Shown here: positions 1 through 64,000 of the stretch, piece by piece | Position numbering within the stretch: the stretch's first letter is position 1 | How the letters are laid out: each line of letters starts with the position of its first letter | DNA from: a virus | DNA length: 64,000 nt | Reading direction: 5' to 3' (one strand) | Virus record (IMG/VR): IMGVR_UViG_3300048919_000265 | The notes under the pieces: generated by a model | Databases searched by the model: none | Told to the model about the DNA's origin: nothing | The model's input: the letters and a program-made list of their open reading frames with translations, nothing else | Position numbers and translations under genes: made by a program

Positions 1-417
1 CTTACCTGCAATTCTACTTTGCATGGCAGCCATTGGTTTTACGTTATGATTATTATACACCAAGCATAACACCCGATTACCATACAATTTATTTCCCGTA
101 GCAAGTTGATGAATAACTTTTCGTTTAGCAATTTTTGCTTGTGTTTGTGTTGTCTTACCTCCACCAGCAGGAGCTATTATAAGTTGAAATTGTGGCTCAG
201 CAGTCATAGCTAACGCAGCATCAGGGGACAGATCAAATCCTAATAACTTATAGAAAAGCTTCACTAGATTTAATTGCGCTGCCGGTGCCGGCAACCTACA
301 GTCATATTGTGGAGGTATATATTTTAAAACATCATCAATGGCCATTTCGTCTATATTATAAGGGGTTACAGTCTCAAATTTTTTACCAATTCCATTATTC
401 ATTCCCGCTTCTTCCAA
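1..417 (-). CDS. UvrD/PcrA-like SF1 helicase, N-terminal part (truncated at window edge; not in ORF track)
   Basis: Manual translation from TTG at 417 (RBS AGGAGTGA) gives ...QLIIAPAGGGKTTQ (Walker A)...RVLCLVYNNHN (motif Ia-like); the frame stays open to base 1. Confidence 0.75.
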   Translation of the reverse strand, partial: MEEAGMNNGIGKKFETVTPYNIDEMAIDDVLKYIPPQYDCRLPAPAAQLNLVKLFYKLLGFDLSPDAALAMTAEPQFQLIIAPAGGGKTTQTQAKIAKRKVIHQLATGNKLYGNRVLCLVYNNHNVKPMAAMQSRIAGK

Positions 418-422
418 TGCTA

Positions 423-2057
423 TCACTCCTGAAGAAATTCTTCTGTTATGTCAAACGACTCCCGAAGCAAGGGGTGAGGTCCTCCAAAAACAGAGATATA
501 CTTACTTCTTTTTCTAAACTCCTGTAGCTCTATAATTCTACTGAGGCGCTTGACTATAAACGAACGATGTTTATAAGTTTCTTCCCACCATAATCCCAAG
601 GTTACAAAATTTAAACCTTCCGGATTCAGTAAATAAGGTCCTCTATTATTAAAGTATGAGATAGGTAGACCTAATGCGTGCTGATGGTGATAGGGCTTCA
701 CGCGAGAAACTCGATATCCTGTCTTTGACACCTCGATAATAGCATTTCTAACAAATTCCTTGAATCCCGGTAAAATATTAATTGGATAAAAAGAAGATAC
801 ATCATTAATATTAAACGTATGATAAACCCTCGTTAATTCATTGTGTACAGGATACACTAATCCTGGAAGCTGTAAGCTAAAAGAGTCTATGTGGCCTACA
901 AATTTGACTCCATCACTCTCGAACAGAAATGAATTAGTAACATCTACGGTACTATCAAACTTATTTATCTTGCGCTCTAGTATTTTAAATAATTCTAAAA
1001 GAGCGTCATGCTCAGGTCTAACCAACAGTGGATTTGCATCATTCATATTATATTCGGATTCCAGAGGAATAACATGAATTTTATCTAAATCAAATTCTGC
1101 TTGTTCTACATTAGAAACTTCTGGTAAGTTAGCATCAATATAACTTACTCTTACTTTAGCTCTCATGTCCTGTTTATTCAAGAAAATCAAAAATTGAAAT
1201 CCGTCATTAAATCGCAACATTACGTCCGGCAATTCTAAAATATACTTAAACTGATCTTCAACAAGCATCCTACTTCTATTAAACAACAGCAATGACAGTC
1301 TGTTTAAGAAACTAACAGTGTCATTAAACGACAAATGAGAAACTATTCCATGTTTATAGTATAAATAAGCTGCAACCACTGACACATGCTTTCCACTAGA
1401 AGTAATAAGTACTTCATTACCCGTATACTTAGAAAGTACTTCTTTTTCCAGCTCAGATAATTTCAACATTGTAGCGGAATTGTTGTTATCATAAGCCTCC
1501 GCCAATTTTTCTAACGAGCTTGTTATATCTATAGCCTCTAGGCCTAACTCCACAAGATCTTCTTTAATTCCTTGAATACCGGCCTCTTTACTACGTTGTT
1601 TTTTCAAATCACCGTTAGTGGCAAAAGGTAAACTTTCTGGATAAGCACTTAATATCAAGTTATTCCATTTAACCATTTCCTCATAACTGGTAAAACTTTT
1701 ATTCACCACAAAATAATCAGGTGCGACTCCAGCGGGCATGTTTTCTTTTATAAACTGCTCACATTGATTTAACACTTCCTGATCGTCTTCATCCGGCTCA
1801 ATAAGTAATAAATAGTTACGAGCATCAAGATCGCGTGAAAGTCTAGTCCGATCCACTAAGATTCCGAAGCTTTCATACAATTCCTTATTAGTATCTGATT
1901 CATAACTTTCGAAATCAACTAAATAATTATTAGTTTGGTCTGGATATTTCTTGATGATATTATAAATATGCCTGTGTATAGAATAATCAAAACCTTCTAT
2001 ACTTTCTTCATTTTTTAATGATTTAAACTCTTCCTCAGATATAATGATATCCTGCAA
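423..2057 (-). CDS. Hypothetical protein (544 aa)
   Basis: Long ORF, RBS AAGGTGG, no recognised motif. Confidence 0.8.
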   Translation of the reverse strand: MQDIIISEEEFKSLKNEESIEGFDYSIHRHIYNIIKKYPDQTNNYLVDFESYESDTNKELYESFGILVDRTRLSRDLDARNYLLLIEPDEDDQEVLNQCEQFIKENMPAGVAPDYFVVNKSFTSYEEMVKWNNLILSAYPESLPFATNGDLKKQRSKEAGIQGIKEDLVELGLEAIDITSSLEKLAEAYDNNNSATMLKLSELEKEVLSKYTGNEVLITSSGKHVSVVAAYLYYKHGIVSHLSFNDTVSFLNRLSLLLFNRSRMLVEDQFKYILELPDVMLRFNDGFQFLIFLNKQDMRAKVRVSYIDANLPEVSNVEQAEFDLDKIHVIPLESEYNMNDANPLLVRPEHDALLELFKILERKINKFDSTVDVTNSFLFESDGVKFVGHIDSFSLQLPGLVYPVHNELTRVYHTFNINDVSSFYPINILPGFKEFVRNAIIEVSKTGYRVSRVKPYHHQHALGLPISYFNNRGPYLLNPEGLNFVTLGLWWEETYKHRSFIVKRLSRIIELQEFRKRSKYISVFGGPHPLLRESFDITEEFLQE

Positions 2058-2071
2058 ATTTTACACCACCT

Positions 2072-2755
2072 TTAATAATCCGTCACTTCCACCAGAGAAG
2101 TAATTTCAGTCGCATGATTTTTTTCTAATCTGAATTCTCGACGAGGCAAGTTTTTATATCCATCTGCAGATTGTTCTACCATCATTATCTGCATACCTTT
2201 ACTAATAGCCAATTCTATTAACTCCGCCAGTTTACCTAAGTTATCCGAATCACTAGCAGCAAAAGCTTCATCCATTGGAATTATCACACAACCAGCACTC
2301 TCATTTATACCAATAGCACTAGAAAAACTTATCAATTCTTGTAATAATTTTCCTTCATTAATATGTGGTAGACGAGTCCTTCCTTTTTTATCAATAATCT
2401 CTAAGGTTGTTTTAGAGTTACGATTTTTAAAATCACTTTTAACCTTAACTTTAAAACCTTCATACGGAAAAACGTATGAGACATTTTCAGTTATCCGCTC
2501 GGACAAAAACAAAAGACGTCTGTCCTTAAATGCTAAATCTTCGGATATGAACTTCTTATGTAGCCTAACAAGGGCTGTCGCGTAAATATCCGTGTCTCTA
2601 CGCAATTTAGTCGCCTTGCTCAAACGGGCCTGTATCTCTTTTCTTTCACGATTAGCTTGTATCCCCTTCTCGAGAGAATACTGTAAGCTACTTAACTTAT
2701 TCCTAAAGGACTGTAGTATAGCCCGTGAGGCGGTAATATCAATATCAGGCAGCAA
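2072..2755 (-). CDS. sbcC: SbcC/Rad50-like ABC-ATPase, C-terminal half
   Basis: N-terminal coiled coil, degenerate signature (INEGK), Walker B/D-loop IIPMDEAFAASD, switch region IMMVEQ. Confidence 0.75.
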   Translation of the reverse strand: MLPDIDITASRAILQSFRNKLSSLQYSLEKGIQANRERKEIQARLSKATKLRRDTDIYATALVRLHKKFISEDLAFKDRRLLFLSERITENVSYVFPYEGFKVKVKSDFKNRNSKTTLEIIDKKGRTRLPHINEGKLLQELISFSSAIGINESAGCVIIPMDEAFAASDSDNLGKLAELIELAISKGMQIMMVEQSADGYKNLPRREFRLEKNHATEITSLVEVTDY

Positions 2756-3839
2756 AGTCCTTCCTCCTTATAACAACAATAAATGTCCCATTCTCTAATT
2801 CCAACTGCACAAAAGTTCGCTTTATCTTAATAGTAATAAAGTCATTAGTTATAGCACCTACAACATCTTTCAGAACTTTAGTTGGAAAAACTAGTGTAGG
2901 TATTGCATGTACTGACCCTAGCTCAACTGGTACTGCGGACCCTAATGTCAACTCCTCCAATCCTGAAATTTCGCTTCTCTTTGCGTTGATGGATTCCACA
3001 TCACTATCCACTTTAAATTTAGCAGAAAATCTGATCGACCCTTCCACCACGCGTGCCACCTCTTGCTCGAAATCAAGAACGATAGTATCAGTAAATCCAC
3101 ATGATTTAACTAAGTTACACACATTGGACAACTTAGTCTTCAATTTATGACTATATTTCTCCCTGAGAACCATACTTAAATCGGATTCTATACTAGCCCT
3201 CGATTGCTTAGCAATAATGACTGTATCTTGTCCTCGACCTATTATAAAATTCTGATACCCATAAACATCGTCTGAGAATTTGAGCAAAAAATTAGCAACA
3301 TTGGTATCTAGATTAAAATTCTCGCACCCTGCTTTATAGTACAGTTGCATACCTTTCAATTCTACAACCACCATACCATTATTTACGTTGATAACTGAAG
3401 TTAAATTCTTGATGACTTTTAATGCGCGTTCAACCTTGAATAAATTTATAGGAACAAAATTACCACTGTTCTCCATCAACTCAAGTCTACTATAAATGGT
3501 AGATATGTCACTTGCTTGATAAGTACTATACATATTATACTCTCCACCGCGAGTAGGTTTAATTGTTAATTCAACATTATTGTTTTCCCCGACAAATAAA
3601 TTTACTACACCATCACTGATTAAGGACATAAAATAATTACGGTCAACTCTAACACAAACATTCTCTGTGAAATCCTCTCTAGATATTACCTCTAATGAAT
3701 AGTGAGAGTAAACTTCCACATTATTAGCGATAATCAATACATTATGCTTTAATATTAAGAAATCCAAGAAATCAACTAGTCCTTGTGAAAAGAAAGATTG
3801 TAATTCTCTCGCATTGCGTACATTAAATGTCACCTGCAT
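2745..3839 (-). CDS. Putative sliding clamp (DnaN/beta-clamp-like)
   Basis: 364 aa, the size of DnaN. The N-terminal pattern LIIANNVEVYSHYSL...VCVRVDRNYFMSLISDGVVNLFV...VELTIK parallels beta-clamp domain I. Replication-gene context. Confidence 0.5.
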   Translation of the reverse strand: MQVTFNVRNARELQSFFSQGLVDFLDFLILKHNVLIIANNVEVYSHYSLEVISREDFTENVCVRVDRNYFMSLISDGVVNLFVGENNNVELTIKPTRGGEYNMYSTYQASDISTIYSRLELMENSGNFVPINLFKVERALKVIKNLTSVINVNNGMVVVELKGMQLYYKAGCENFNLDTNVANFLLKFSDDVYGYQNFIIGRGQDTVIIAKQSRASIESDLSMVLREKYSHKLKTKLSNVCNLVKSCGFTDTIVLDFEQEVARVVEGSIRFSAKFKVDSDVESINAKRSEISGLEELTLGSAVPVELGSVHAIPTLVFPTKVLKDVVGAITNDFITIKIKRTFVQLELENGTFIVVIRRKDFAA

Positions 3840-3841
3840 GC

Positions 3842-4162
3842 TTAATCACCACTTTCACGTAGCAAAAATAATTCTATGTCCTTCAAAACTTTTATGAATA
3901 ATTCCCGGAACTCCTTGTGATACTCTTCTTCTATATAAACCCTATCCAAGTCGTATCCCAGAAGAGTTCTGATTGCTATCCCTTTACTTTCTAAGATTGC
4001 TATTTTATCCTCATTAAAAGCGGCAAAATACTGCTTAAGATCCTCGATTCTTTGATCAGCTTTCAATCGATTTTGATCGCTAAGTGCTTTCTTAGTTGTT
4101 AATTTATGACGTAGTTCCTTAATATTAATCCCACCATCTGTAACATTACTCACCGTTTCCAC
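3842..4162 (-). CDS. Hypothetical helical protein (106 aa)
   Basis: ORF with RBS GAGGAAG, coupled to neighbours. Confidence 0.75.
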   Translation of the reverse strand: METVSNVTDGGINIKELRHKLTTKKALSDQNRLKADQRIEDLKQYFAAFNEDKIAILESKGIAIRTLLGYDLDRVYIEEEYHKEFRELFIKVLKDIELFLLRESGD

Positions 4163-5283
4163 CGCACTTCCTCTAATAATTTACTCAATTCCCTCTCATA
4201 CGTTGTAAATCCTTTATCCAATAATTCTTCAAAAAGATCCAAATACGCAGGATGGGCAGTAAGAGATATTCTAAGATTCTCTATTGGATCATCCACAACT
4301 GGCACATACTCACCAACGAAGTACTTAGTCTCCTTAGCTTCCATTCGCTTAGATTGCTTCATCTCTATAATTTCTTCGTTAACACAGGCTTCCCTTGGTA
4401 GAAGATCGAACTTGTTATGTTTTATCTCTTTAAGTTCTCCGTCTTCCACAACAACAACTGGAATGTTGCGCTCTAACCTAGCATTGTTAATCTCTAAGTG
4501 GTTTGTTCTGCCCAAAGTAGATAAGTAATGCAGCCAGGTGGAAAAGCCTGTCGACTCGTCTGTATACTTGTATTGTCCATACAGCATATGCATATGCGCT
4601 AAAAATGCGTAATGATATCCCTGCAAAGCCTGTGTGTTATCGAAATAAACAGGGGTATGCTCAAAAATCTTTATACCCATTTCTCGTTCAGAATCTTCTA
4701 GAATAGCCTTAGCATACAGATCCATATGAAAAACGCCAATATTGGTCTTACCATCTAACCGAGGCCTTGTTATTGGACACCCATAATGATTAAATAAAAA
4801 TCGCACATTTCCATCTTCTAATTCATCAACTAATTCAAAAACATTCATTCTTCCTCGTGGTTGCCATATCTTATGGCTAAGACTTTTCATTATCTTAGAA
4901 GACTTTACTTCTCTAATTAATGTCCAGAAAGGATTATCTTTATAATATGTTAATTCGTGATTACCAAGGGTAACATATATACCAGTAACTTCATTCCTCA
5001 ATTGAATCATCTTATTGTTCTCAGAAATTGCCATAAATAAATCATTGTATGATCTATCCCAAATATCCCCTGCAAAAATAGGGAACACTTGATCGGCATA
5101 TTCATAGCAACTTCTATTAATTTTCACTACTTGCTCGAACGCATGTTCCATTTCTTCCAAGTAATTAACTCTGCCATCGAAGTTTTTATTTCTTCTATGC
5201 AAGTCAGTTACTATAGGGTATGCATTGACCGTCAATGTGTTGTACCTCCCCATAAATAACGCAAGGAACTCTTTTCCCGACAC
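4150..5283 (-). CDS. Hypothetical protein (true start probably downstream of 5283)
   Basis: Long ORF; the longest start overlaps the upstream gene by 80 nt and has no clear RBS. Confidence 0.75.
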   Translation of the reverse strand: MSGKEFLALFMGRYNTLTVNAYPIVTDLHRRNKNFDGRVNYLEEMEHAFEQVVKINRSCYEYADQVFPIFAGDIWDRSYNDLFMAISENNKMIQLRNEVTGIYVTLGNHELTYYKDNPFWTLIREVKSSKIMKSLSHKIWQPRGRMNVFELVDELEDGNVRFLFNHYGCPITRPRLDGKTNIGVFHMDLYAKAILEDSEREMGIKIFEHTPVYFDNTQALQGYHYAFLAHMHMLYGQYKYTDESTGFSTWLHYLSTLGRTNHLEINNARLERNIPVVVVEDGELKEIKHNKFDLLPREACVNEEIIEMKQSKRMEAKETKYFVGEYVPVVDDPIENLRISLTAHPAYLDLFEELLDKGFTTYERELSKLLEEVRWKR

Positions 5284-6409
5284 TGTTGATAAAATTTCTT
5301 ATCTCCGATAAATCCACATCGAGTTCCTTGACCGACTGTAGATTTGTATTTGCCTTCTCAAATTCCACATGAACTGGTATGAGCTCCTCATAAATATCAA
5401 GCATGGTTAGAATCGAACCCACATCGGATTTGACAACTTCTGCTTCTAGAAAGGCTGCACACAGATCAACCAACTCTAAACTACATTCCAATTCTAATGA
5501 TAAGTCTGGTAACATTCTACTAATTCCGTCCATTGAATCTTGCATTTCTGCATAAATATCTAAAACCTGTAACAACTCACCCTCATTATTTTCAGAAAAT
5601 AAATACTCACTACCCTCACAAAACAATCTTCCTTCTTCAACAAAATCTAGTAACCAAAGTAAATTATCATAATTCTTGTTATCAAATACAGAATAATCTA
5701 CTTGTTGCATACCTCTATACGCGTCCAGTAAATTTTGATAGGTATCAATTCCTGCCCCCATATTCACAATTCTTTGTGCCAATCTGTCCGTATCTACATA
5801 CTGATAGCTCTTTAATTGATGCTCTAAGCTTAGCACTATATCATCCAACACATGCATATTTTCGCCTTGTAATTTGGATTTCTCTGCAGTAGTGGCAATC
5901 AAATGATTAAGAGTCTCATTACTGGTAAGCAATTTTACCAGGTTATGATTCGCTTTAGTATTACTGTTAACTAATAACAAACTCTGATCTAAATCTAGAA
6001 TATTAGCAATATAAGATTCCTCTGGATCAACAATCAACGAAAGATTCCTAACCATCCTAGGGTCTGGAGTCCGTGACACGGTGAAAGGATGCACATTGAA
6101 TTCCTCGGTAAAATAATATTGAGGACCGTTACGATAAACTTTAACAGCAGCACAACTGTTATCACTAAATAGATATACCGCCATAGCATGATCTGCACCA
6201 AACGCTATCAATTCTCCTAATTCTTTACGAGTATAAAAAGTAGGACAACCTGCTACCTTGAGCATTTTAAAATATACGCTCTTACCTGTATTATTAGGTG
6301 CTGTTATAATATTAAGTCCCTCACTAAATTCAAATTCAACATTACCTAATGATTGACAATTAATTAACCTACATCGGGAAATTTTTACTGGTTTAATATA
6401 ATCTAACAT
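5204..6409 (-). CDS. sbcC: SbcC/Rad50-like ABC-ATPase, N-terminal half
   Basis: ISRCRLINCQSLGNVEFEFSEGLNIITAPNNTGKS (SMC-family N-terminus with Walker A), then helical/coiled-coil region ending in PCVIYG...C. Confidence 0.85.
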   Translation of the reverse strand: MLDYIKPVKISRCRLINCQSLGNVEFEFSEGLNIITAPNNTGKSVYFKMLKVAGCPTFYTRKELGELIAFGADHAMAVYLFSDNSCAAVKVYRNGPQYYFTEEFNVHPFTVSRTPDPRMVRNLSLIVDPEESYIANILDLDQSLLLVNSNTKANHNLVKLLTSNETLNHLIATTAEKSKLQGENMHVLDDIVLSLEHQLKSYQYVDTDRLAQRIVNMGAGIDTYQNLLDAYRGMQQVDYSVFDNKNYDNLLWLLDFVEEGRLFCEGSEYLFSENNEGELLQVLDIYAEMQDSMDGISRMLPDLSLELECSLELVDLCAAFLEAEVVKSDVGSILTMLDIYEELIPVHVEFEKANTNLQSVKELDVDLSEIRNFINSVGKRVPCVIYGEVQHIDGQCIPYSN

Positions 6410-8089: not shown

Positions 8090-8869
8090 TTATGGTTTGA
8101 ATCTTAGGACTAAATCAGCCTTATTGATTATAGCCTCTTTAAGTTTACGTTGATACTCTTCCGCATAATCCGTCTTTAGAATATCATCTACATCCTTTTT
8201 AATGTTCTGTGTCACAAGTTTGAACCCAGGATGAATCTTTTTAAGGCGTTCTCTAACCTTTATCCCCGCCTCGTCATTATCTTGTAAAAGAAATACATTT
8301 TCTATAAACCTCAATTGAAAACACACTTCTTCACTCAAACTTGAACCTAGCAAACAACCGGCATTAAATCCACATGAATCTAAAGACCACATGTCAAACA
8401 CACCGTCCACTAATAATATGTACCCGTCCTTAACCGCTTTTTCAAACCCCTTAGGAGGAAAATACATATACTTACCGCGATTAAATACTGAGGATCGGGA
8501 ATACCTATAATAATGTCCCACACTCCGCTCGTTAGGGTCCTTACTCTTCATTTTCTCAAATGGCTCGAACCCAACGAAGCCTACGATACTTCCTGCTACA
8601 TTACTGATAGGTAGAACAATATAATTTTGCCAAACGCATTCTCCACCATACGTATACATATCTAAGAATGGATCAGTACACCCCTCCCCAAACATGTCTT
8701 TCATATAATCTTCGTGTGGAACGAAGAATGCTCTAGCCTTGAAAAGAGAATCTGCATTTTCCATGCCACGAACCTTTTTAGCAAATAAAGATAAGTAATA
8801 CTGTAAAGTGTCCAAATCCTCGGTGTATATCTTTTCTATACCTTTGGTAACAATTTCTGTAAAGCTCAT
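8090..8869 (-). CDS. dnaG: DnaG-type primase catalytic core (TOPRIM), no zinc-binding domain
   Basis: IVLPISNVAGSIVGF, YSRSSVFNRGKYMY, ILLVDGVFD, LGSSLS, LQDNDEAG. Start reassigned to ATG 8869 (ATGA overlap). Confidence 0.85.
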   Translation of the reverse strand: MSFTEIVTKGIEKIYTEDLDTLQYYLSLFAKKVRGMENADSLFKARAFFVPHEDYMKDMFGEGCTDPFLDMYTYGGECVWQNYIVLPISNVAGSIVGFVGFEPFEKMKSKDPNERSVGHYYRYSRSSVFNRGKYMYFPPKGFEKAVKDGYILLVDGVFDMWSLDSCGFNAGCLLGSSLSEEVCFQLRFIENVFLLQDNDEAGIKVRERLKKIHPGFKLVTQNIKKDVDDILKTDYAEEYQRKLKEAIINKADLVLRFKP

Positions 8870-15732: not shown

Positions 15733-15734
15733 CT

Positions 15735-18365: not shown

Positions 18366-18415
18366 ATTAATAGCCTCCTCATAATCCGATTAAAATCGTA
18401 CCCTAAATAACAATA

Positions 18416-18879: not shown

Positions 18880-18903
18880 TCTTAATTCCTCCTTTCTTTT
18901 CTA

Positions 18904-36712: not shown

Positions 36713-36722
36713 AATTACCCTC

Positions 36723-47339: not shown

Positions 47340-47360
47340 AAAATCATTCCTTCCCTGCCA

Positions 47361-47630
47361 CTATTTAAACCAGCTGAAAAATTTCTTAGCTGGTTTCAAA
47401 CCTTGTACAAAAAATTCACCATCTTCAATAGATCCCAACACAGTCTGATAACATTTCAGTTCACGTGGGGAAAGAGTACTCTTACGCGACATATTATAAA
47501 GTTTTCGTTTATGCACAATAAAAATAATAGAAGAACTTCCAAATTTAGCTACAACACCTTTGATCATAAACAAGCCTTCCTCCAATCTAGGGCTGGAAAT
47601 AAAATTATCCTTCCCAGCCCTAAAATTCAT
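47361..47630 (-). CDS. Hypothetical protein (89 aa)
   Basis: ORF in operon. Confidence 0.65.
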   Translation of the reverse strand: MNFRAGKDNFISSPRLEEGLFMIKGVVAKFGSSSIIFIVHKRKLYNMSRKSTLSPRELKCYQTVLGSIEDGEFFVQGLKPAKKFFSWFK

Positions 47631-53500: not shown

Positions 53501-56500
53501 TCTCTTGTCCATATCATAGTCACTTAAGTTTTGAGATAGTAAACTCACTAACTGTGGTTTCCATATCTCTAAACACAACAAGAATGGCAACCCTATTTGG
53601 GTAGGAAGTCTTTTTGGATTACGAGAAGGAATGATAACTGTACGACCGGAGAAGTTAACCCGCTTCTTCAACATATTCTCGCGAATACGGCCGTGCTTCT
53701 TATCTTGATTCTCACGCTTAGCGAAATACTTGAGAATAGGAGTGTACCCTTTATTCTCCTTAATTTCACTGCCATAAGTCAACCCACATAACTCAACAAT
53801 TCGTAAATAGATACTATAAATACCTACAGGATCTTCTTTACCCAACGCTTTATATTTAGACACTTCGTCTATAATGCGTCTATAATAATAATCAAAGTCC
53901 TGAAAAGTATTCTTAAACATAGCCTGCGGTCTAAAACTTAACGGCATAACAGGAAGACTACTAATAACAAAATCTTGCAAAGTCAAGCCAGCTGCCTCGA
54001 AATCGAGAACACCTCGTAAATATCTTTTATGCTCAAGACGTTTATCATCCTTTTGAGCATTCTCAATTTTCTTTTGGTAGAACTCTTTAATTGGTTCGAA
54101 ACTCGTTCTCTTCAACATATGAACCAAAGCTGGCATTCCTGTCAACTTGCCTTCCGTGCTGCCCCTACGGAATACAAACACCTTATCTTCCTTCACAAAC
54201 TCTTCTTCTATATAATACTTGCACGCAATGAGTTCCTTAAGCATACCCATTTGAGCAACCATTACTTTCACTTTGCCACTTTCGTTCTCTTCCTTACCAA
54301 TCAGTAAAAACCGATGTATCTTACCCTTGGTAATCCACATAGGATGGACAAGCTCTGCATGTAAAGGCATCCAACTCCAGCCTTTACGATTCTTAAACCT
54401 CTCCCTATCATTAGTTGTTATCCCAAAAATATTAGTAGAGCGCAAACTATCTTTATCATTAATATCTACTGATCTACTGTTCATTCCACGAATCATGCTA
54501 TCAGTCAAAGGTTTGAAACTAAACCCTTCCATTTCATCAATAGTAGCTTCTGTACAAAGACTACGCATAATAACCTGGAACAAATCATCATTATGATTTT
54601 CGCCTTCGACGTCAACTTCACTTGGGTTTTCAGCAAAACTTTCTTCGAGAGCCTCGATACTTTCTAAATCATCACTTTGTACACTTTGTAAATCTTGTAA
54701 TATACGTTTGCCTCCAACCGCCATTATACACCATGTCTCATACTCACCGAAGGCTTGACCACCTGCATGACCCGCACCTTTATTAGGCTGATTAAACACA
54801 GGATCAGTCTTCTTACTCAATCCAATACCTCTAATCTTATGATCAACCATATGCTCTAATTTAAGCATATACATAACCACAACATTAATAGGTCTCTTCA
54901 ACCACTGACCTGTTCTACCATCTCTCATTCGTAACGGTTTAGTATTAGTCTTCTCCGCCATATTTCTTACAAACTCTAAGGTGTTTCCTTTATAAGGGGA
55001 AACAATAGCAATTTTTCCTAGCTTTTTCATAGCAAATCCTAAAACCCCTTCTAGGATTTGACTAATGTTAGAGCGAGAAGGAACACCCAAGGGACTGATA
55101 ATAATATCAGGAACTACACCGCTAACTGGATCAAATGGCATATCAGATTTTGGAACAATTTTTGCAACTACGCCTTTATTACCATAGCGACCTGCTAATT
55201 TATCTCCTTCTTCGATAGGTTTCAACACACCCAACATTACAACAGCTTCATTACCCTCAATGTAAGAATATATTACTTCACCCTGAACAGTTCCTTCCAG
55301 TCTCTTAACTGCATCAAAGACTCCTAAAACTGTTGTCTCTTTCTTCGTATACTCATTCTTTATTCTCCGAATGCCTAGTACTACATCCCCAGGTTTAAGG
55401 ATACTACCTTCTTTTGGCAAACCTTCATCCGTCATGTGTGGTAGAATTGATTTACCCTTGAAACCAAACTCTTCAAAAGATTTAGTCCCTTTGTCTTCAT
55501 CAATCACAGGTTCTGCCAGTTTATACGAAAATCTGTGCAGTTCTACAGTAGTCAGACCATCAGTACCTACTAACTCGCTACTTAATAAAATAGCATCATC
55601 AATAGTAGAACTTTCATAAGTTTTGTAGCCCACAACCAAATTTCTAGCAATGGCAATGCCACTATTAAACACTTTCGGGTCCACATTCATATTGCCGAAA
55701 TCAGTATGATGGAAAATGTCGTAGCTCCGTGTGTCTATATCGCTACTATGCGTAACAATATCATCACCGGAGTATTTTACACCATTACTTGTATTAACCT
55801 GGTACGAAAACATAACACCACTCGACGCCTTTTGAATAAAGGGCACATTCACAACAGGTGTATGATTAGGTACACCCTCAATGCGGAAATATAAATCTCT
55901 GCTTCCGTTATTAATATCAATATTAGTAAGCTCTATTTCTTTAGTAAGAAAGTCTTCTCTACTTATACCAGAGAGCAATTCAGTATTACTATCGTAATAC
56001 TCCACCAATATCTCAGACGCTCTGATAAACCCTTCCTGTAATAAACTATCACCACCAGAGCTGACAAGAGGTCTCTCGTTCCTTATTGGCACAGCGGTTT
56101 GTTTGTGATGATTACTACCCATCAGCAAACGTTTTGGATTACTATGTTCCTGAAACGGAATTTGCATTCTTGCAGGAGACATTGTTTGATAAGGAGAATA
56201 CTCCATATACAAAACATCTTTAACCGGAACCTCTAACATTGTATCATTATACAACACCAAAACCTTATCTTTCAATACCTCGGTACCATCTTCTAATTTC
56301 TCAAAAAAAGTCTCTCTCCACTCAGCAATATACTGATCCTCTTTTTCTGCAGCAGTAAGATAGACTGGTTCCTTGCTAACGACTCTTCCGTTTTTAACTT
56401 TAATATACGGGGCTTGCAAAAATCCATAGCTATCTGTTTTTGCTAACCAAGTCTTGGCGTGCACAGTACCAATCTTGCTACTCTCAGGACTTTCAATTGG

Positions 56501-58012
56501 ATCAAGCAAACCAAATTGACCTTCTCTAACACTAGTCATCTCAACCGAACTACGTTTAACTTGCTTAGTAACTCGATGTTCTTTAGCCTTTTTCTGAATA
56601 GTGTTATTCAGCTCAGATTGCTGACTCTCCACTGATTCTACGCTTGTAATCTTGTCCATCAAGCTATTAGTATCGAATCCGTGCAGCTCTATAACTCGCT
56701 TCAACAAATCTGAATCTTCTGAACTTTCCTCTACATACTTGGCTATATAATAATTAACAACTTTGCAACTAGATCTTATTGCATTAAGTGCTGTGATTTC
56801 TATAGTCACCAAATTCTGATTAGTCAATTCATAAACGTTATCATAATTATCCAACCCGCTTAACGTGTCAATGAAAACTTGAATCATACCCAAGATATCA
56901 AAAACCTCTAAGTTACCGCTATAAAGTTTGCGATAACATGTATAAGTTTTTCCTTCATTGGAAACTAAGATATTATCCACTAAACTTTGATCAAGCTGTT
57001 TTAGAACTTCTACGGTTAGAACAGTGCCCTTCGAAACAATACTATTACCAACACGTACATCTTCCTCCAACACACACCCTAATGCTCTAAAATTGAAGAT
57101 AGATGTCTTACGAACAATATAGACTTTCTTATTACTATCATAAACTTTTAAAAAGTCAACTGAACAATAATCCAACTCTTCTAACGTCCGAGGATCTAAA
57201 ACCATGCCTTCCCTGTAAATCTTTTCACCTACGGTAAGAGTCTCGCCTAAAAACAAATTTCTGCAACGCTCTTTAAAACTCAACGTGTTTTTCATACGAA
57301 CACCCGCGATATCCCCTAAAACCATTAGGTGAGGGCTGAAAAGACTCTGCTTAGCTAACTCAAACTTATCTTGAATACTCATGTTTTTCAATTCTACATC
57401 TCGTCGATTATTCTTAAACCCTTCGAAAAAGTTGGTGATCACTTGATCAACACAATCTGATTTTAAAGGTTCCCTTTGAGAAAAAGAATGTATAACGTAA
57501 ATACTATCAGTACCCAGTTTGTTAGCTAATTCTGCATAACTCAAACCCGTAAAGGCTTTCAGGAAAACAGCAAGCGGTATTTCACAATCCCCAACCTTAT
57601 TACTTGTTGTAATATACAACTTATAGTCCTTCTCATAAATAAGAAGATTTTTACCTAACTCTGACTTCATCTGTAAATGCGGAATCTTCACCTTACTGGC
57701 ACTCTTCAAAACATACCAACCATAAGACAGAGTATAGATATCTATAACTTGTCTATTTTTTCCATTAATAATAAAACCAGTTTCACCATAGTGAGGTAAT
57801 TTTAAAAGATCCATCGGAAAAATAATTTGTTCACCCGTAGTCTTAACCTTCACATCAACATTAGCCTTAACCATTACCAACCGACTACCGTTTTCTTCAT
57901 AAACACTCTTGTTGTTTATAGGATACATCGAATACTTAACACTATGTGTATCCGTATCGACAGACATATCTTGCAACAAATTCTGTACTTTACTATACTC
58001 AACCTTTCCCAA
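50564..58012 (-). CDS. rpoBC: Fused beta-beta' multisubunit-type RNA polymerase (2482 aa)
   Basis: Beta motifs: GFIINGKNRQV, PIESPES, IPFQEH..KRLLMGSN..KQ, GDKLAGRYGNKG, PLGVPSR, GGQAFGEYE. Beta' motifs: KRVNFSGRTVI, RQPSLH, HPLVAKGYNADYDGDQM, SGARG, bridge helix, CxxxxGVCxxCYG, AQSIGEPAAQL..FH.GG. One uninterrupted frame. Confidence 0.95.
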   Translation of the reverse strand: MGKVEYSKVQNLLQDMSVDTDTHSVKYSMYPINNKSVYEENGSRLVMVKANVDVKVKTTGEQIIFPMDLLKLPHYGETGFIINGKNRQVIDIYTLSYGWYVLKSASKVKIPHLQMKSELGKNLLIYEKDYKLYITTSNKVGDCEIPLAVFLKAFTGLSYAELANKLGTDSIYVIHSFSQREPLKSDCVDQVITNFFEGFKNNRRDVELKNMSIQDKFELAKQSLFSPHLMVLGDIAGVRMKNTLSFKERCRNLFLGETLTVGEKIYREGMVLDPRTLEELDYCSVDFLKVYDSNKKVYIVRKTSIFNFRALGCVLEEDVRVGNSIVSKGTVLTVEVLKQLDQSLVDNILVSNEGKTYTCYRKLYSGNLEVFDILGMIQVFIDTLSGLDNYDNVYELTNQNLVTIEITALNAIRSSCKVVNYYIAKYVEESSEDSDLLKRVIELHGFDTNSLMDKITSVESVESQQSELNNTIQKKAKEHRVTKQVKRSSVEMTSVREGQFGLLDPIESPESSKIGTVHAKTWLAKTDSYGFLQAPYIKVKNGRVVSKEPVYLTAAEKEDQYIAEWRETFFEKLEDGTEVLKDKVLVLYNDTMLEVPVKDVLYMEYSPYQTMSPARMQIPFQEHSNPKRLLMGSNHHKQTAVPIRNERPLVSSGGDSLLQEGFIRASEILVEYYDSNTELLSGISREDFLTKEIELTNIDINNGSRDLYFRIEGVPNHTPVVNVPFIQKASSGVMFSYQVNTSNGVKYSGDDIVTHSSDIDTRSYDIFHHTDFGNMNVDPKVFNSGIAIARNLVVGYKTYESSTIDDAILLSSELVGTDGLTTVELHRFSYKLAEPVIDEDKGTKSFEEFGFKGKSILPHMTDEGLPKEGSILKPGDVVLGIRRIKNEYTKKETTVLGVFDAVKRLEGTVQGEVIYSYIEGNEAVVMLGVLKPIEEGDKLAGRYGNKGVVAKIVPKSDMPFDPVSGVVPDIIISPLGVPSRSNISQILEGVLGFAMKKLGKIAIVSPYKGNTLEFVRNMAEKTNTKPLRMRDGRTGQWLKRPINVVVMYMLKLEHMVDHKIRGIGLSKKTDPVFNQPNKGAGHAGGQAFGEYETWCIMAVGGKRILQDLQSVQSDDLESIEALEESFAENPSEVDVEGENHNDDLFQVIMRSLCTEATIDEMEGFSFKPLTDSMIRGMNSRSVDINDKDSLRSTNIFGITTNDRERFKNRKGWSWMPLHAELVHPMWITKGKIHRFLLIGKEENESGKVKVMVAQMGMLKELIACKYYIEEEFVKEDKVFVFRRGSTEGKLTGMPALVHMLKRTSFEPIKEFYQKKIENAQKDDKRLEHKRYLRGVLDFEAAGLTLQDFVISSLPVMPLSFRPQAMFKNTFQDFDYYYRRIIDEVSKYKALGKEDPVGIYSIYLRIVELCGLTYGSEIKENKGYTPILKYFAKRENQDKKHGRIRENMLKKRVNFSGRTVIIPSRNPKRLPTQIGLPFLLCLEIWKPQLVSLLSQNLSDYDMDKREWEHVLEVMGSNMAAFRSKVGKVMINKGLSAIEIYDKIYGVISAYIEGYKNPNSDEWVIKPRVVLAGRQPSLHKFNIRAYTPIITNKKCIELHPLVAKGYNADYDGDQMWIIGLVNNAACEEAMEKLSPKYGVINPKDNSVVLDHSQDMKLGVYFATMLHNNVDSITKDSRYSLSNLRFYTDLGQLETDIDLDFLALHDLVCYSTNGRRYLSTAGRVLFNGLLVSGLGFTDEPYTNVLGIEGINANNYCDLRFDGLVSGNGGSRKEPVYVALSDVTSWSYNDLNADENLQVFQAISEFGFKYSDISGISLYLEDFVEDPTMHAKIAKAKQYAEIVNRDYYQGLLSNEVRKNLLIEIYNGCKDNIAKTFVASFDRNNNIFIMFDSGARGTEGQIMQACGVIGILQKSKNETLEVPVLSNYAKGTSSFDTLLLSFSTRTGVASTQNETAISGELTRTAVYMSSGLRIVEHDCGVEFEDFKLRYGKFTDKIIGPSGELVASKALFGKHLDTSDNANNKLLLNFLGLDLEINEKCVNLLIKNKVKRIKTTDGEFKLYYELDSLMKSLLLRRKTEALPSLLQGHYISPATIKYIEQENLDSISLRTILSCRSIGGVCAHCYGMRYDVNKLPEIDDLVGIESAQSIGEPAAQLVLSLFHQGGVAGASINKGVDVLKNLLDSGKPRGLTGAVLPPKSGYVHYTSGDGNVRLVADDGEELMLQTANELIVESGEYVEETSPLTTGFIIPSELENSPSLQVLRFKQMALLELYFRTFELSKIKVNARHFEIFVKLQTSLGIVLDSDDENFKEGRTYELNDILQNSNGSVKYMFDINGSSPVIIHFSGMETEMAREKLADSLGLFVTQQTRSPGKSAIGSLFYGQDVTGSRTKILSLPKKMKVTKNEVYEEHNNLRELEGTIASSLVQVQETQNIVLDDSLMDLDALLSFDDIKPVNKESVDYITLEETKEEETVNSEDKKMDKMKLF

Positions 58013-58581: not shown

Positions 58582-58818
58582 TTAAAACATATTCATACCA
58601 GTAACCTTAGCTCCGCTTTTCTCAACATTTTCCTTAGTTCTATTTACTGGTTGATTGTTGTTAGAATCCTGCCCACTCCCACGAGCTTCACCCTCATATA
58701 AATTAAAGAGCTTAATTTCTCTGTTTTTAATATTCACCGTTTTCACTAAACGAGCTTCGATTTCTGTATGATCGTCCTCGATTAAACGTCCTTCACTTCC
58801 TGCTATTCTAATAATCAT
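58582..58818 (-). CDS. Hypothetical protein (78 aa) ending KVTGMNMF
   Basis: Start ATG 58818 in ATGA overlap, RBS GGGAG. Confidence 0.7.
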   Translation of the reverse strand: MIIRIAGSEGRLIEDDHTEIEARLVKTVNIKNREIKLFNLYEGEARGSGQDSNNNQPVNRTKENVEKSGAKVTGMNMF

Positions 58819-59945
58819 TGATATTTCTCCCTTCCCATCTGTCGATAATCGAGGTATTCCGTAGTAGATATGATACCAAACTCTTGTAGAGTTTCTAAAT
58901 TTTCCATTAAAGAAGTCCACAGCTTTTGCTTTACTTCTATTGAGTGATCAAATCTATTAAGATCAACTTCTAATTTCCTAGTAATCATCTGATACACTAG
59001 GAAATCGTTCCTTAGTGTACCATAGAACTCTCTAGCAAATTCCATCGCTTTCATGATTTGTTTCTCTGTATAAACTAAGCACTCACCTAATGATATTCCT
59101 TTAGATATGCACCAATAATATCGTATAATTGGATCAAATGCTCTAGTTTTAGCAATTTCCATAGGATAATACGTATATTCTGCCAAAGCCGAATTATACT
59201 TCGCATATGTGGCCCTATTAATTTGCCCATTGTTGAACATTTCTAATAAGGCTGCATGCGCAGACTTGGCTTTATCTTCGAATTCATAACGATTAGTTAA
59301 AAACAAAAACATTAAATTAATGCCGATTGCCTCAATATCCAGATTTACTTCACTAACCTCATCAACGATAGCCATCTTCTTGAAATCTCGAGCAGGTAAT
59401 GATCTTTCTACTTTCAACTTGTAAATCATACCCGCTTTTAAAACTTCCGCTATAGATACCATATGGACCCTGCTAGTTATCTCTCTAACCATACTCATAA
59501 CAGCGTTTGTACGAAGCGCATCAAGATTTCTCCAAAGCTCTTCATTTGGATCTCGCATCCCCTCTAGCACCTTGGACGCAAGCTCTTTTAAATATTTTAT
59601 AATATGTGGATTATTATACCGGTGTCTGCCTAAATCAACCCACTTATTAAACTCTGCACAAGTATGGCGTGCTAGTAACAGCGACCTCATTTCTTCTTTA
59701 TTAAAATGAATATTATAAAACCCTTTTTTCTTTATGGTGTCAAAACGAATCAAAGAGCTGCTAATCTTTTCTTCTAGTTGACCGCTTTTTATGGCCATCA
59801 TCCGATCCACATAATGCATATACTTATTATGGGAAATCTCCTGATTGTCCCGGGCAACTGCCAATTGATACAAAACATAGTCATAATCCGCTTTAAATTC
59901 TGGATTATATCTACTCATAATGAGATATTTATCAATATCTATCAT
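58815..59945 (-). CDS. Hypothetical helical protein (376 aa) with SHOCT-like repeats
   Basis: Three segments of the L..L...G.I...Y type. Confidence 0.75.
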   Translation of the reverse strand: MIDIDKYLIMSRYNPEFKADYDYVLYQLAVARDNQEISHNKYMHYVDRMMAIKSGQLEEKISSSLIRFDTIKKKGFYNIHFNKEEMRSLLLARHTCAEFNKWVDLGRHRYNNPHIIKYLKELASKVLEGMRDPNEELWRNLDALRTNAVMSMVREITSRVHMVSIAEVLKAGMIYKLKVERSLPARDFKKMAIVDEVSEVNLDIEAIGINLMFLFLTNRYEFEDKAKSAHAALLEMFNNGQINRATYAKYNSALAEYTYYPMEIAKTRAFDPIIRYYWCISKGISLGECLVYTEKQIMKAMEFAREFYGTLRNDFLVYQMITRKLEVDLNRFDHSIEVKQKLWTSLMENLETLQEFGIISTTEYLDYRQMGREKYQ

Positions 59946-59962: not shown

Positions 59963-61204
59963 TTATTCCAAGGAGAGTTTCTTCAATCTAGCTCCTCGGA
60001 TTATACTATTTATTGCACCACTATTACGTTCAAATACAGCAACTTGACCAGGTCGGAGGTCCTCTGTTATAATTATGTCTGGATTAAATCCGTTCAACAT
60101 TCTTGCTTCTGTCCGATCCTTCGCTAGTAGCGGCTCTAGTTGCAATCTAACTGACGCTTCTACTCTCTGCTGCTCTACCAATATTCCCTTGATTGTAGCA
60201 TAGTAGTAATTAAACGACCAGTACTCCATTTTCAAAGCCACATTCCTATTAGAATATTGATTAGATATAACTTCACTGTACGTCATGTCGTCAACATCAA
60301 CAACTATCCCATCTGACGGTATTCCATTCGACATATTGAACATCATATCAAATTTTTCCTTCAACCACTCTACAAATTTATCATATATAATAGGAACTTC
60401 GCCTCTTGCTATCTTTATATATGGGACCGTATTAAATCCGCTAGTCTGCAGAACGTCTAAAGTCTCGCTTAACTTTGTGCTCAAGCCTTCCGCTGTAAAT
60501 GCCAAGCTCTTTAGATGCTTGTAATCCTCGGCATCATGCTTGACACGTAACATAGAAATAGCACTACTCTTCTCTGTTTTATAAGCCGCAGGATCATACT
60601 TTTGTCTCAGATATGGTAAAGTATCACTTTCCACATAACTTTCGGAGTAAATTTTCACTTCAGAAGGAAAACCCTTAAAATATCTAGGGACAATATTCAA
60701 AATCGTATCTGTAAAATCATAACCTTTACCCCGTCTTCCGCGAGAAAGTGTTAATTTTAACTCAGATAAACCACCTTCTGTTTCCAGCACAAGACTCTTA
60801 TTATTAATACCGTCAACCTTCAGCGACATAATAAGATCCTGATCACTAAGTCGCATGAAATAAGAGTATGCATCTTCATATTCTGTAATAGCCTCAATAC
60901 TTAAAGACTTCTCCTCATCCAAATAAGGTATATACTCTGAGCGACTCTCATTAGGTGCGGGAGCGTACTTTCCCAAATCAAATTCCTGCAACACTTCAAC
61001 AGGAACTGGATCATCGTCATAGGTTCTATTCAGAAATTCAGAAATACCTGGTAACGCTTCCCGATTATCTTTACAATAATCTTCTAACTTCCCATAAAAA
61101 GTGTCATTAACTATTGGTTGACCTATTCTGTACATATACCTGGTCAAGGCAAAAGCATCCACAACCCGTTTGTCTTTTAAAAGGTCCTGCAAAATATCTA
61201 ACAT
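59963..61204 (-). CDS. ligA: NAD-dependent DNA ligase N-terminal part (Ia, adenylation and OB domains)
   Basis: YMYRIGQPIVNDTFY (Ia), LSIE, SLKVDG (motif I Lys), LSRGRRGKGYDFT, PSDGIVV, VALK, OB strands. Ends before the Zn finger. Start probably ATG 61204. Confidence 0.85.
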   Translation of the reverse strand: MLDILQDLLKDKRVVDAFALTRYMYRIGQPIVNDTFYGKLEDYCKDNREALPGISEFLNRTYDDDPVPVEVLQEFDLGKYAPAPNESRSEYIPYLDEEKSLSIEAITEYEDAYSYFMRLSDQDLIMSLKVDGINNKSLVLETEGGLSELKLTLSRGRRGKGYDFTDTILNIVPRYFKGFPSEVKIYSESYVESDTLPYLRQKYDPAAYKTEKSSAISMLRVKHDAEDYKHLKSLAFTAEGLSTKLSETLDVLQTSGFNTVPYIKIARGEVPIIYDKFVEWLKEKFDMMFNMSNGIPSDGIVVDVDDMTYSEVISNQYSNRNVALKMEYWSFNYYYATIKGILVEQQRVEASVRLQLEPLLAKDRTEARMLNGFNPDIIITEDLRPGQVAVFERNSGAINSIIRGARLKKLSLE

Positions 61205-61217
61205 AACCTTGCCACCT

Positions 61218-61763
61218 TTACTGATATTTATAACTTCCAACTAAAATAAACTTATCCAAATCAGCATAATCTACCCTAAATCCGTTCCGGTAGTATCCAT
61301 TAATATAAGTTAGTGCTTCCCCTACAATTATCTTGTTGCCTTCGACCGTGCCACAAGACCTAATAACTTGTTTTCCTTCCGGTGTTACTAAGAAATCTAT
61401 ATCATAATTCCCAAGAGGTACGCTTTCTACCCAAAATATCGTGTCTTCATATCCTGTAACAGATTTATAAATCTCCTTGGCTGCTAATGCCCCTAACTTC
61501 CTACTAAAGAACCACATCCAAGATATTAATTCCATTTCAGTATGCTTTCTCAAATTGAGAAACTCAAATATAAATTTGAAGTCTTCTACTTTTAAGTTAG
61601 GATTATACATATTATCTAGAGCAACTTTTCTCATAATTTGAAATTGTTTACTAGTAAGCAATTTTAATCTTAGTGCTTTAGATATTTGTGCTTCCACCTC
61701 ACGGTCAATTGCTTTCTTCTTTACTACAAAATCAGTTAGGTATTCAACACCCAAGCATAACAC
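61218..61763 (-). CDS. Hypothetical protein (181 aa)
   Basis: ORF with RBS GAGGTG. Confidence 0.7.
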   Translation of the reverse strand: MLCLGVEYLTDFVVKKKAIDREVEAQISKALRLKLLTSKQFQIMRKVALDNMYNPNLKVEDFKFIFEFLNLRKHTEMELISWMWFFSRKLGALAAKEIYKSVTGYEDTIFWVESVPLGNYDIDFLVTPEGKQVIRSCGTVEGNKIIVGEALTYINGYYRNGFRVDYADLDKFILVGSYKYQ

Positions 61764-62987: not shown

Positions 62988-62998
62988 GTTAATAACCC

Positions 62999-63688
62999 CT
63001 AAACATTTACGCTTAGTGACTTCCCAATACTTCTATTAATAAACGAAAAGTCTTCAATATCATTGTCAGCCAAGTCCAAATATCTTAAAGACCTAGACTT
63101 AAACAAACCAGAAGGCACCTCTCTGATCTTGTTCTTAGAAAAGTTTAAAGTTACGCAACTTCCAAAATCATTCTTAGTATTTGCTATATCTACTAAATCA
63201 TTAGATGAAACGTCTAACGTAAGCAATGCCGGAGGAGTAACCAGATCCCCTAGACTATCGATCTTATTCTCGGATAAGTTAAGCTCTATCAGACTAATTG
63301 CCAAATCCAAGCCCTTCGGCATGGCTCTTATTTTATTCTGTACCAAGTATAAATATTTTAGGCTTCTTGTTGCTCCAAGTGTATCGTCTTTGAGTTCAAA
63401 ACCCTTTAATTCATTGTTAGATAAGTTTAAAGTTACCAAACTACTTGGAAACAAATCAGACCCTATTACACCGTGCACAAAATTATCCGACAAATCTAAA
63501 AACTTAAGGTTACCCATATCCTTAATGAACTCAGGTACAATAGATAAATTGCACTCACTAAGATCTAAATAGTTTATCCCTGCCAAAAACTCATCTTTAC
63601 TTGCCATTGGAACTTTTTTATTCTGTACCTTTAACCTAGATTTAATAGACATAGGCAAGGTAGAAAACCACATATCTGAGCTCTTCAT
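62999..63688 (-). CDS. Leucine-rich repeat protein (229 aa)
   Basis: About 7 LxxLxLxxNxL repeats (YLDLSECNL, FLDLSDNFV, TLNLSNNEL, YLYLVQNKI, ELNLSENKI, TLDVSSNDL, TLNFSKNKI, YLDLADNDI); no signal peptide. Confidence 0.9.
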   Translation of the reverse strand: MKSSDMWFSTLPMSIKSRLKVQNKKVPMASKDEFLAGINYLDLSECNLSIVPEFIKDMGNLKFLDLSDNFVHGVIGSDLFPSSLVTLNLSNNELKGFELKDDTLGATRSLKYLYLVQNKIRAMPKGLDLAISLIELNLSENKIDSLGDLVTPPALLTLDVSSNDLVDIANTKNDFGSCVTLNFSKNKIREVPSGLFKSRSLRYLDLADNDIEDFSFINRSIGKSLSVNV

Positions 63689-63697
63689 ATTGTCCTC

Positions 63698-64000
63698 CTA
63701 ATTATTGAATTCTGTTGTTTGTACCAATTCTAATACATCTCCGACTATACCGGTTTTATAGTCTGTCTCTTTATCATCTGCGCCAATTGTAGTTAAATAA
63801 ATAACAGTTGCTATTTGATCATCACCGGGCGAATCCGTAAATGCTTGAGGCGCAGGTGAACCTTTAACACGCAATACATTACCATCCAACCTCACTTGAG
63901 CGTTCTTTAATAATATATCTTTGCGAACATTAACCAGTGTTGCCCCGTCGCCTTTTAGCTTTAATCCAAACAAACCTTGTGTTTCTTTAGTTGTGTAAAT
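63698..64000 (-). CDS. C-terminal fragment of a gene entering from the right edge
   Basis: The frame of ORF 63698..63973 is open to base 64000 (IYTTKETQGLFGLK...). Confidence 0.7.
   Translation of the reverse strand: MYTTKETQGLFGLKLKGDGATLVNVRKDILLKNAQVRLDGNVLRVKGSPAPQAFTDSPGDDQIATVIYLTTIGADDKETDYKTGIVGDVLELVQTTEFNN

Follow-up and report, generated by a model that had tools for sequence, protein, structure and literature searches.

We analysed a 64-kb stretch of DNA (IMG/VR record IMGVR_UViG_3300048919_000265, positions 1 to 64,000; hereafter the window) and found that it encodes a single-chain RNA polymerase (RNAP) of the beta-beta' type, a family-A DNA polymerase (PolA) and a set of further replication and repair genes. 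The window probably forms the core, devoted to information processing, of a giant AT-rich extrachromosomal element of 212.5 kb that is plasmid-like in character, read from one strand only and provided with transcription and replication machinery of its own. This reading is carried by the gene content of the window, the intact catalytic motifs of the polymerase, the conservation of the family and of its gene order, the position of the RNAP outside the cellular enzymes and the absence of the element from the catalogues searched. An earlier note, made from the letters alone, had taken the stretch for the core of a large replicon of Bacillota, neither typical of plasmids nor obviously a phage, and had asked how large the element is. 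The RNAP gene was found on a contig of 212,527 bp, and its RNAP and PolA have no close kin in phage or plasmid catalogues, in agreement with that proposal.

The window contains 61 open reading frames (ORFs) of at least 80 amino acids (aa), which together cover 97% of the sequence. All 61 lie on the minus strand, as do all genes of the window whose coordinates are given below, and the co-orientation described earlier is therefore complete. GC content was 35-39%. GC skew lay between -0.20 and -0.31 in each 4-kb bin (about +0.26 on the coding strand), and since its sign is the same throughout, the cumulative skew shows no turn. There are few intergenic gaps, and these hold strong Shine-Dalgarno sequences and several hairpin/T-run terminators; the TACATA motif did not occur in the intergenic DNA of the window. 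No tRNA and no match to an Rfam family was detected in the window. Pfam and PHROGs were applied to all 61 ORFs and NCBIfam to ten chosen ORFs, and about 40 of the 61 had no recognisable family in Pfam or PHROGs. At the sensitivity of these two collections none of the 61 matched a capsid, portal, terminase, tail, lysis, integrase, relaxase or VirB4 family, which upholds the earlier statement that no genes for capsid, terminase, tail, integrase or a type IV secretion system (T4SS) were recognised. The same scans returned a single possible marker of conjugative plasmids in the window, an FtsK-type ATPase that might serve as a coupling protein.

The RNAP gene (50564-58012) encodes 2482 aa when read from its TTG start, against 2454 aa for the entry in the protein collection, and was recognised by its Pfam Rpb1/Rpb2 domains, its motifs and its colinearity with cellular enzymes. 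Seven Pfam domains were found in order along the chain, namely Rpb2_6 (E-value 4.4e-50) and Rpb1_2 (2.3e-18) together with Rpb1_5, Rpb1_4, Rpb2_45, Rpb2_7 and Rpb1_3. The motifs of the two double-psi beta-barrels were judged against NADFDGD in beta' and GxKxxxRxGNKG in beta. The chain carries NADYDGD at residue 1605 in its beta' part and GDKLAGRYGNKG at residue 936 in its beta part, and NADxDGD and GDK..GNKG were invariant across 18 family members. Over 1974 aligned columns the protein was colinear with Bacillus beta plus beta' at 26% identity, with the beta/beta' junction near residues 1132-1140 and only six indels of 25 residues or more. The N-terminal zinc-binding domain of beta' (CxC...CxxC), present in the cellular rows shown, was deleted in 40 of 40 element RNAPs. 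The fused RNAP of the earlier note thus proved to be a full-length beta-beta' enzyme in one chain.

Two trees were built with cellular rpoBC loci collected by scanning genome contigs with universal RNAP motifs. In the FastTree analysis (80 rows, 1925 columns) all usable concatenated cellular RpoB and RpoC sequences (39 rows from about 12 phyla) formed one clade with no element row inside it, and distances among the elements reached 3.2 substitutions per site as against 1.65 among bacteria. In the IQ-TREE analysis (LG+G4, 39 rows, of which 23 were cellular and represented 10 phyla) element and cellular enzymes were split with an SH-aLRT of 100, and the branch between them measured 1.08 substitutions per site. 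No element RNAP fell among Bacillota in either tree, and the element enzymes were placed outside all sampled bacterial phyla. Such separation argues that the RNAP gene is not a recent capture from a host. Owing to long-branch effects, early branching and fast evolution of the element RNAP would look alike in these trees. The RNAP tree called for earlier thus puts the element enzymes outside the cellular radiation, and the length and support of the separating branch, together with a split ligase and a gene order that are kept at 32% RNAP identity, fit the long independent history that had been suggested.

We next consider how widely this RNAP occurs. A search of 5.8 billion clusters with the RNAP gave 511 matches, and more than 110 of the clusters were fused RNAPs of 2350-2900 aa and 28-66% identity, found mostly on contigs of 100-310 kb. 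Some fused-RNAP clusters comprise 800-1,500 sequences. In one cluster the contigs are repeatedly 260-266 kb long, which matches the expectation for a discrete replicon, and contigs of other clusters reach 400-870 kb. Named carriers of the family RNAP are Lachnospiraceae bacterium 47-T17 and Paraclostridium bifermentans. In six metagenome contigs (L081-L086), whose RNAP and PolA are 32% and 39% identical to those of the window, the order ligase N-terminal half, RNAP, 180-aa, 793-aa, 84-aa and 260-aa proteins, PolA, 278-aa protein and ligase C-terminal half is kept. These relatives have a GC content of 35-36% (37% in the window) and a coding-strand skew of +0.21 to +0.26. One of them, L082, which comes from a contig of 567 kb, has a gene for a segregation protein of the TubZ type 7 kb upstream of the RNAP (Tubulin 3.7e-9, TubZ_C_3 8.5e-11). 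The TubZ-like gene and one for a DUF5688 protein occupy 1460-2590 and 3189-4115 of L082, 6-8 kb upstream of the RNAP, and nothing equivalent was detected at the corresponding place in the window.

The family was not represented in the catalogues searched. Neither RNAP nor PolA found close kin among the 50,697 phage records of INPHARED or the 72,556 plasmid records of PLSDB, where the matches were to cellular rpoBC or distant polymerases only, and megablast found nothing in either collection. Scanning 2.9 million IMG/VR contigs with the RNAP, the PolA and the 793-aa gene gave no match, and a search for PolA of the element type in 399 sampled genomes of Clostridia species was likewise negative. 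In the literature searched on fused or private RNAPs of plasmids or giant elements we found no description of such elements.

PolA (42524-46312, 1262 aa; DNA_pol_A 2.5e-30 over residues 651-946, DNA_pol_A_exo1 2.9e-5) carries a 3'-5' proofreading domain, and no 5'-3' exonuclease domain was detected in it; it is of the replicative type. Its best matches were 26-27% identical in PLSDB and at most 25% in phages, over no more than 47% of the protein. The second PolA announced in the earlier note was rejected, as a PolA profile and tblastn found elsewhere in the window only a relic of about 50 residues, within a 91-aa ORF at 30188-30463. A DnaG-type Toprim primase of 275 aa (8090-8917; Toprim_2 3.2e-7) matched three PHROG DNA-primase families (8e-13, 6e-12, 3e-11), and a DnaQ-like 3'-5' exonuclease of 213 aa (21005-21646) matched phrog_192, 'DNA polymerase exonuclease subunit' (3.7e-15), and RNase_T (0.001), so that both of these earlier assignments stood. 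The clamp and clamp-loader candidates did not, since no ORF in the window matched a clamp or clamp-loader family in Pfam, NCBIfam or PHROGs. At its C-terminus (50564-50590) the RNAP reads KKMDKMKLF. A 112-aa ORF (58582-58920) ends in VTGMNMF (58582-58610) and shares with the RNAP a tail of the form M-x-x-F. These tails resemble C-terminal clamp-binding peptides, although no clamp gene was identified in the window.

An NAD-dependent DNA ligase appears to be divided between two genes. The N-terminal, adenylation half (59963-61240, 425 aa; phrog_3869 1.8e-18, DNA_ligase_aden 2.6e-4) lies upstream of the RNAP in the relatives too, at 43-44% identity. The C-terminal half, comprising zinc ribbon, HhH and a BRCT-like region, was assigned by hhalign to a 354-aa ORF (40536-41600), which was colinear with LigA residues 375-619 when compared with five cellular LigA proteins (E 7e-4, probability 26%) and which carries a CxC...CC..C zinc-ribbon motif. 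When the window was searched with a LigA hidden Markov model, the 425-aa ORF was the best match and the 354-aa ORF the second (E 0.008). As the two top LigA matches, they point to a ligase in two separate genes, which lie 18 kb apart on either side of the RNAP and PolA. For the 354-aa ORF other approaches gave little: the AlphaFold2 (AF2) model was poor (pLDDT 55), Foldseek returned nothing, a PDB profile search gave repeat-protein noise only and a word-based homologue search gave only three proteins. Support for it as the C-terminal ligase half is moderate, and that for the split LigA named in the earlier note is accordingly firmer on the N-terminal side. We also considered the 354-aa ORF as a clamp and rejected this in favour of the Zn-HhH-BRCT half of LigA.

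Several further genes keep their place around the RNAP and PolA. A 180-aa ORF (50016-50558) starts 5 nt past the RNAP stop and adjoins the RNAP in all six relatives at 37-40% identity, compared with 32% for the RNAP itself. It has a weak HNH-like motif (Pfam HNH, E 0.004) and is a candidate accessory protein of the RNAP, perhaps a subunit or a cofactor. The 793-aa protein encoded next to it (47620-50001) is specific to the family and syntenic in the relatives, with only 62 relatives among 1.84 billion representative proteins. Its AF2 model (pLDDT 87, pTM 0.69) is all-alpha with a small C-terminal beta domain; the fold had no Foldseek match in PDB or BFVD, and the sequence had no Pfam match. 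VIA gave a best Z of 5.9 for this model and placed six region-2 chains of extracytoplasmic function (ECF) sigma factors weakly on residues 88-180 (Z 4.5-5.3). Comparison with 18 sigma factors by hhalign did not support a relationship (E 0.5), and the model is at most a weak hint that the 793-aa protein could be a sigma-like specificity factor.

Between the 793-aa gene and PolA are three small ORFs of 89, 84 and 260 aa (46328-47630), none of which matched a Pfam family; those of 84 and 260 aa keep their position in L081-L086 at 23-35% identity. PolA is followed by a 278-aa low-complexity protein (41628-42464; 33-34% identity in relatives), which gave only weak matches of a compositional kind (New_glue 1e-4, PHROG tape-measure 3e-4). 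Downstream of the ligase C-terminal half are six ORFs of 984, 307, 397, 234, 276 and 121 aa (33639-40581) without a sequence match in Pfam, NCBIfam, PHROGs or PDB; for the 984-aa ORF and for the 876-aa ORF of the ATPase module, ESM Atlas and PDB sequence searches also gave nothing. Upstream of the ligase, the core genes include one for a leucine-rich-repeat protein of 229 aa (62999-63688; LRR_8 3.5e-19).

Repair genes are grouped at the other end of the window. An SbcCD/Mre11-Rad50-like set (2072-6409) reads, in order of transcription, as an N-terminal piece of an SbcC-like ATPase head (5204-6409; AAA_23 9.5e-6, 26.8 bits against a cut-off of 27), an SbcD-like calcineurin-type phosphoesterase (4150-5283; Metallophos 2.2e-6), two unknown proteins (106 and 364 aa) and, last, a piece with the C-terminal Walker B region (2072-2755; SbcC_Walker_B 0.003). 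The SbcC pieces are in differing frames with short overlaps, and the SbcD-like gene sits after the first of them. A Rad50/SbcC-like ATPase seems to be spread over three or four ORFs that are coupled in translation. Of the split SbcC described earlier, the two SbcC-like ends are present beside an SbcD-like gene; these ATPase pieces, which score just under the Pfam cut-offs, are weakly supported. A helicase had been named as well: an N-terminus of superfamily 1 (SF1; UvrD-like) is cut by the window start (1-426) and its match is weak (AAA_19, E 0.0012). A NERD-domain nuclease-like protein is encoded at 10063-10833 (NERD 2.2e-7).

The ATPase module (13603-21008) consists of a 593-aa protein with one transmembrane (TM) segment, helical proteins of 100 and 114 aa, an 876-aa protein without a recognised family and a soluble ATPase of 709 aa of the FtsK/EssC type (13603-15732; FtsK_SpoIIIE 1.9e-17). 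It may serve in the export of DNA or protein. The earlier note saw in it a module like a type VII secretion system (T7SS), and what stood of this is the ATPase domain, which is nearest to EccC and EssC. In PDB its matches were EccC (4nh0, 2.2e-18), EccC5 (4e-11) and YukB (1e-10), far from FtsK (2e-6), and the two helical proteins are encoded directly upstream of the ATPase with the single-TM protein before them, an arrangement that would suit a genuine minimal T7SS exporting two small helical proteins. The remaining T7SS core could not be recovered: the 100-, 114-, 593- and 876-aa ORFs had no Pfam or NCBIfam match to WXG100, EssB, EsaA, EssA or EsaB, and the ATPase itself reached only 67 bits (8.8e-19) against the cut-off of 778 of NCBIfam EssC (TIGR03928). 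It has one clear P-loop domain, where EssC/EccC proteins have three ATPase domains of the FtsK type behind an FHA or TM N-terminus; it has no TM segment, and no FHA domain was detected in it with Pfam. FtsK-like coupling proteins (TcpA, ConQ) are also used by conjugation systems of Bacillota, and the ATPase might instead be the coupling or DNA-translocating ATPase of a conjugation-like apparatus. For this module alone, we regard a genuine T7SS as possible but doubtful.

A small cargo islet (28519-32410) holds a reductase of the SDR/FabG type (28519-29310; adh_short_C2 1.4e-48), the PolA relic, an APC amino-acid permease (31046-32410; AA_permease_2 2.8e-34) and hairpins resembling intrinsic terminators. 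In the 91-aa ORF a peptide with the sequence ...LQD.LLDFHTEGAAK... occurs twice in tandem, and this duplication of the DFHTEGAAK motif marks the ORF as a decayed remnant of PolA. The permease was 65% identical to a protein of Cohnella mopanensis and 60% to one of Paenibacillus pabuli, with other Paenibacillaceae next in the list, and a search of sequencing runs found the window in one DNA run, a root metagenome that is its probable source. Taken together, permease and run point to a root-associated member of the Bacillota as host, probably of the family Paenibacillaceae. A gut-type Clostridia host would not fit this member, although Clostridia do occur among the hosts of the family overall.

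These results can be combined into a simple scheme. We infer that the RNAP is active and transcribes the element; as the element's own polymerase it would read long co-directional gene arrays. A PolA-based replisome, likewise the element's own, would copy the element unidirectionally and co-oriented with transcription. Having both processes in its own hands, the element would need its host mainly for translation, precursors and energy, and insulation of this kind could have allowed the family to persist across distant Bacillota. The lifestyle would be extrachromosomal and non-viral.

Several observations weigh against such a plasmid-like element. Strictly co-directional genes, an RNAP of its own and a PolA of the replicative type are features met more often in phages than in plasmids, and the window yielded no gene for a Rep initiator, for partition, for a relaxase or for a T4SS. 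The gene content considered here covers 64 of 212.5 kb, with about two thirds of the ORFs familyless, and virion proteins could be encoded elsewhere or be unrecognisable. Relatives with the same synteny occur on contigs of 340 and 567 kb. Expression data for the element were not found, and no RNA sequencing run was listed with the window sequence. One cluster with an RNAP of 2771 aa recurs on contigs of 470-873 kb, for which larger elements, integration or misassembly are possible.

The window could instead be the early or replication region of a jumbo phage or other large virus of Bacillota, its virion and packaging genes lying outside the window or being too divergent, with the FtsK-type ATPase as a possible packaging motor. 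Large phages characteristically have RNAPs of the multisubunit type and a replicative PolA of their own, the closest matches of any kind to PolA were phages or phage-like Bacillus replicons (23-27% identity), and the strictly unidirectional gene order, the strong skew, the two thirds of ORFs without a known family and a weak PHROG terminase match of the FtsK ATPase (1.1e-6) all suit such a virus. Yet the capsid, portal, terminase, tail and lysis families are absent from the 61 ORFs, the tape-measure match falls in a low-complexity protein and the ATPase is nearer to EccC/EssC than to packaging ATPases. The three core genes are missing from 2.9 million IMG/VR contigs, and RNAP and PolA are without close kin among the 50,697 phage records; the RNAP is full length and in one piece, compared with the split enzymes of jumbo phages (PMC7598289, PMC7824862); and one relative carries TubZ, while the window carries cargo of host type. 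The window tests have weakened the phage explanation, and we consider it unlikely, though a serious rival. Less likely still is an integrated element, of the kind of an integrative and conjugative element (ICE) or a giant island, or a part of a cellular chromosome rather than an independent replicon. The syntenic relatives on 340- and 567-kb contigs and the cluster that extends to 873 kb would agree with integration. Against it, tRNA, rRNA, Rfam matches and integrase were all unfound in 64 kb, the RNAP falls outside all cellular phyla in the tree, PolA of this type was not found in the 399 Clostridia genomes and one cluster has a fixed size of about 265 kb. The GC content of Paenibacillaceae, the family implied by the cargo, is far above the 35-37% of the element, which also argues against a chromosomal origin.

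We return to the plasmid-like giant element as the favoured explanation. Bacterial plasmids are assumed to rely on the RNA polymerase of the host. Private multisubunit RNAPs do occur in jumbo phages, as split and reduced enzymes, and also in the cytoplasmic plasmids of yeast. If the family is as we read it, mobile elements would have a further, new means of shielding themselves from the host, and a class of large elements would be escaping plasmid and virus catalogues alike. A bolder proposal, which we put forward only tentatively and would not ourselves call probable, is that the family forms a distinct and ancient class of semi-autonomous Bacillota replicons, not plasmids or phages as usually understood, whose RNAP diverged before or outside the extant bacterial radiation and works with its own specificity and accessory proteins (the 793-aa and 180-aa proteins) and a PolA replisome, so that transcription would be orthogonal to that of the host. 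On the favoured reading, too, the family would be a possible source of orthogonal transcription parts, and an RNAP lineage outside the sampled phyla would add fresh evidence on how RNA polymerase first evolved.

The element was compared with known systems that share some of its features. The best PLSDB matches to its PolA were on 216-kb plasmids of Bacillus velezensis/amyloliquefaciens and 350-kb plasmids of B. thuringiensis (NZ_CP076292.1, NZ_CP071971.1, NC_018516.1). The similarity is limited to 26-27% identity over at most 47% of PolA, and an RNAP of the element type was undetected in these plasmids. In NZ_CP076292.1 (B. velezensis, about 216 kb), which gave the best PolA match of all in PLSDB, a region of 31.6 kb (34168-65811) resembles the window in that most genes run in one direction, GC is 37% and the skew is strong (+0.34). 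Its genes include those for a DnaB-like helicase, ParB, a primase, PolA, SASP and a sigma factor; this plasmid may be a phage-like replicon of a different family.

Two groups of large Bacillota elements described recently were considered as the identity of the element; Hodors were rejected, and Inocles, judged by the part of the element that was read, are improbable. Inocles are giant (about 350 kb) extrachromosomal elements of oral Streptococcus (Kiguchi et al. 2025, PMC12340149) and share with it the AT-rich composition, the apparently non-phage character, the Bacillota host, the presence of DNA-repair genes and the fact of having been overlooked in metagenomes. They have two replichores with a switch in gene orientation, the marker InoC and DNA polymerase III (Pol III), and an RNA polymerase is unmentioned in their description (PMC12340149), whereas our element is unidirectional in the window and encodes PolA and RNAP. 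InoC (Replic_Relax, PF13814) had no match in the window, and there is neither an orientation switch nor a turn in the monotonic skew across the 30% of the element that was read. Hodors, conjugative megaplasmids of the human gut, are likewise Bacillota elements of megaplasmid size that are missing from plasmid databases. According to the main text of the preprint they exceed 300 kb, have 45-47% GC, carry Rep_3, ParAB, VirB4, VirD4 and multiple sortases, and that text does not mention an RNAP (PMC12934698). As far as the main text describes them, Hodors are excluded by GC content (35-37% in the present family), by size (212.5 kb) and by marker genes, none of which was matched in the window.

Among two-barrel RNAPs of mobile elements, the NCgl1702/YonO-like enzymes, which resemble RNA-dependent RNA polymerases, lack the flap (SBHM) insert and are found on prophages and mobile elements (PMC7824862), are similar to the element RNAP in being a single polypeptide. 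The element RNAP has the complete cellular architecture, and membership in that group was rejected because those enzymes have no flap. Jumbo phages of the phiKZ and AR9/PBS1 types offer another parallel, a non-cellular replicon of about 200 kb with its own two-barrel RNAP, but their enzymes are split into 4-5 small and highly reduced polypeptides (PMC7598289, PMC7824862). The element RNAP is a single full-length chain of the cellular type, and neither virion genes in the window nor kin in the phage collections were found for the element.

With the cellular RNAP core the element enzyme shares the order of domains along beta and beta', the NADxDGD and beta lysine motifs and the Rpb1/Rpb2 domains. 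It differs in sequence (26% identity), in its position outside the sampled phyla, in having lost the N-terminal zinc-binding domain of beta' and in its setting, on an element of mobile type beside PolA and family-specific proteins. Fusion of beta and beta' is not in itself unique, as natural fusions occur in Helicobacter and Wolbachia. Linear killer plasmids of yeast (pGKL2) are cytoplasmic, about 13 kb long, replicated by a protein-primed family-B polymerase and transcribed by a strongly reduced RNAP. They are thus eukaryotic, small and built around different enzymes, and what they have in common with the element is the plan of a plasmid that carries its own DNA polymerase and a single-chain RNAP of the beta/beta' type, free of host transcription.

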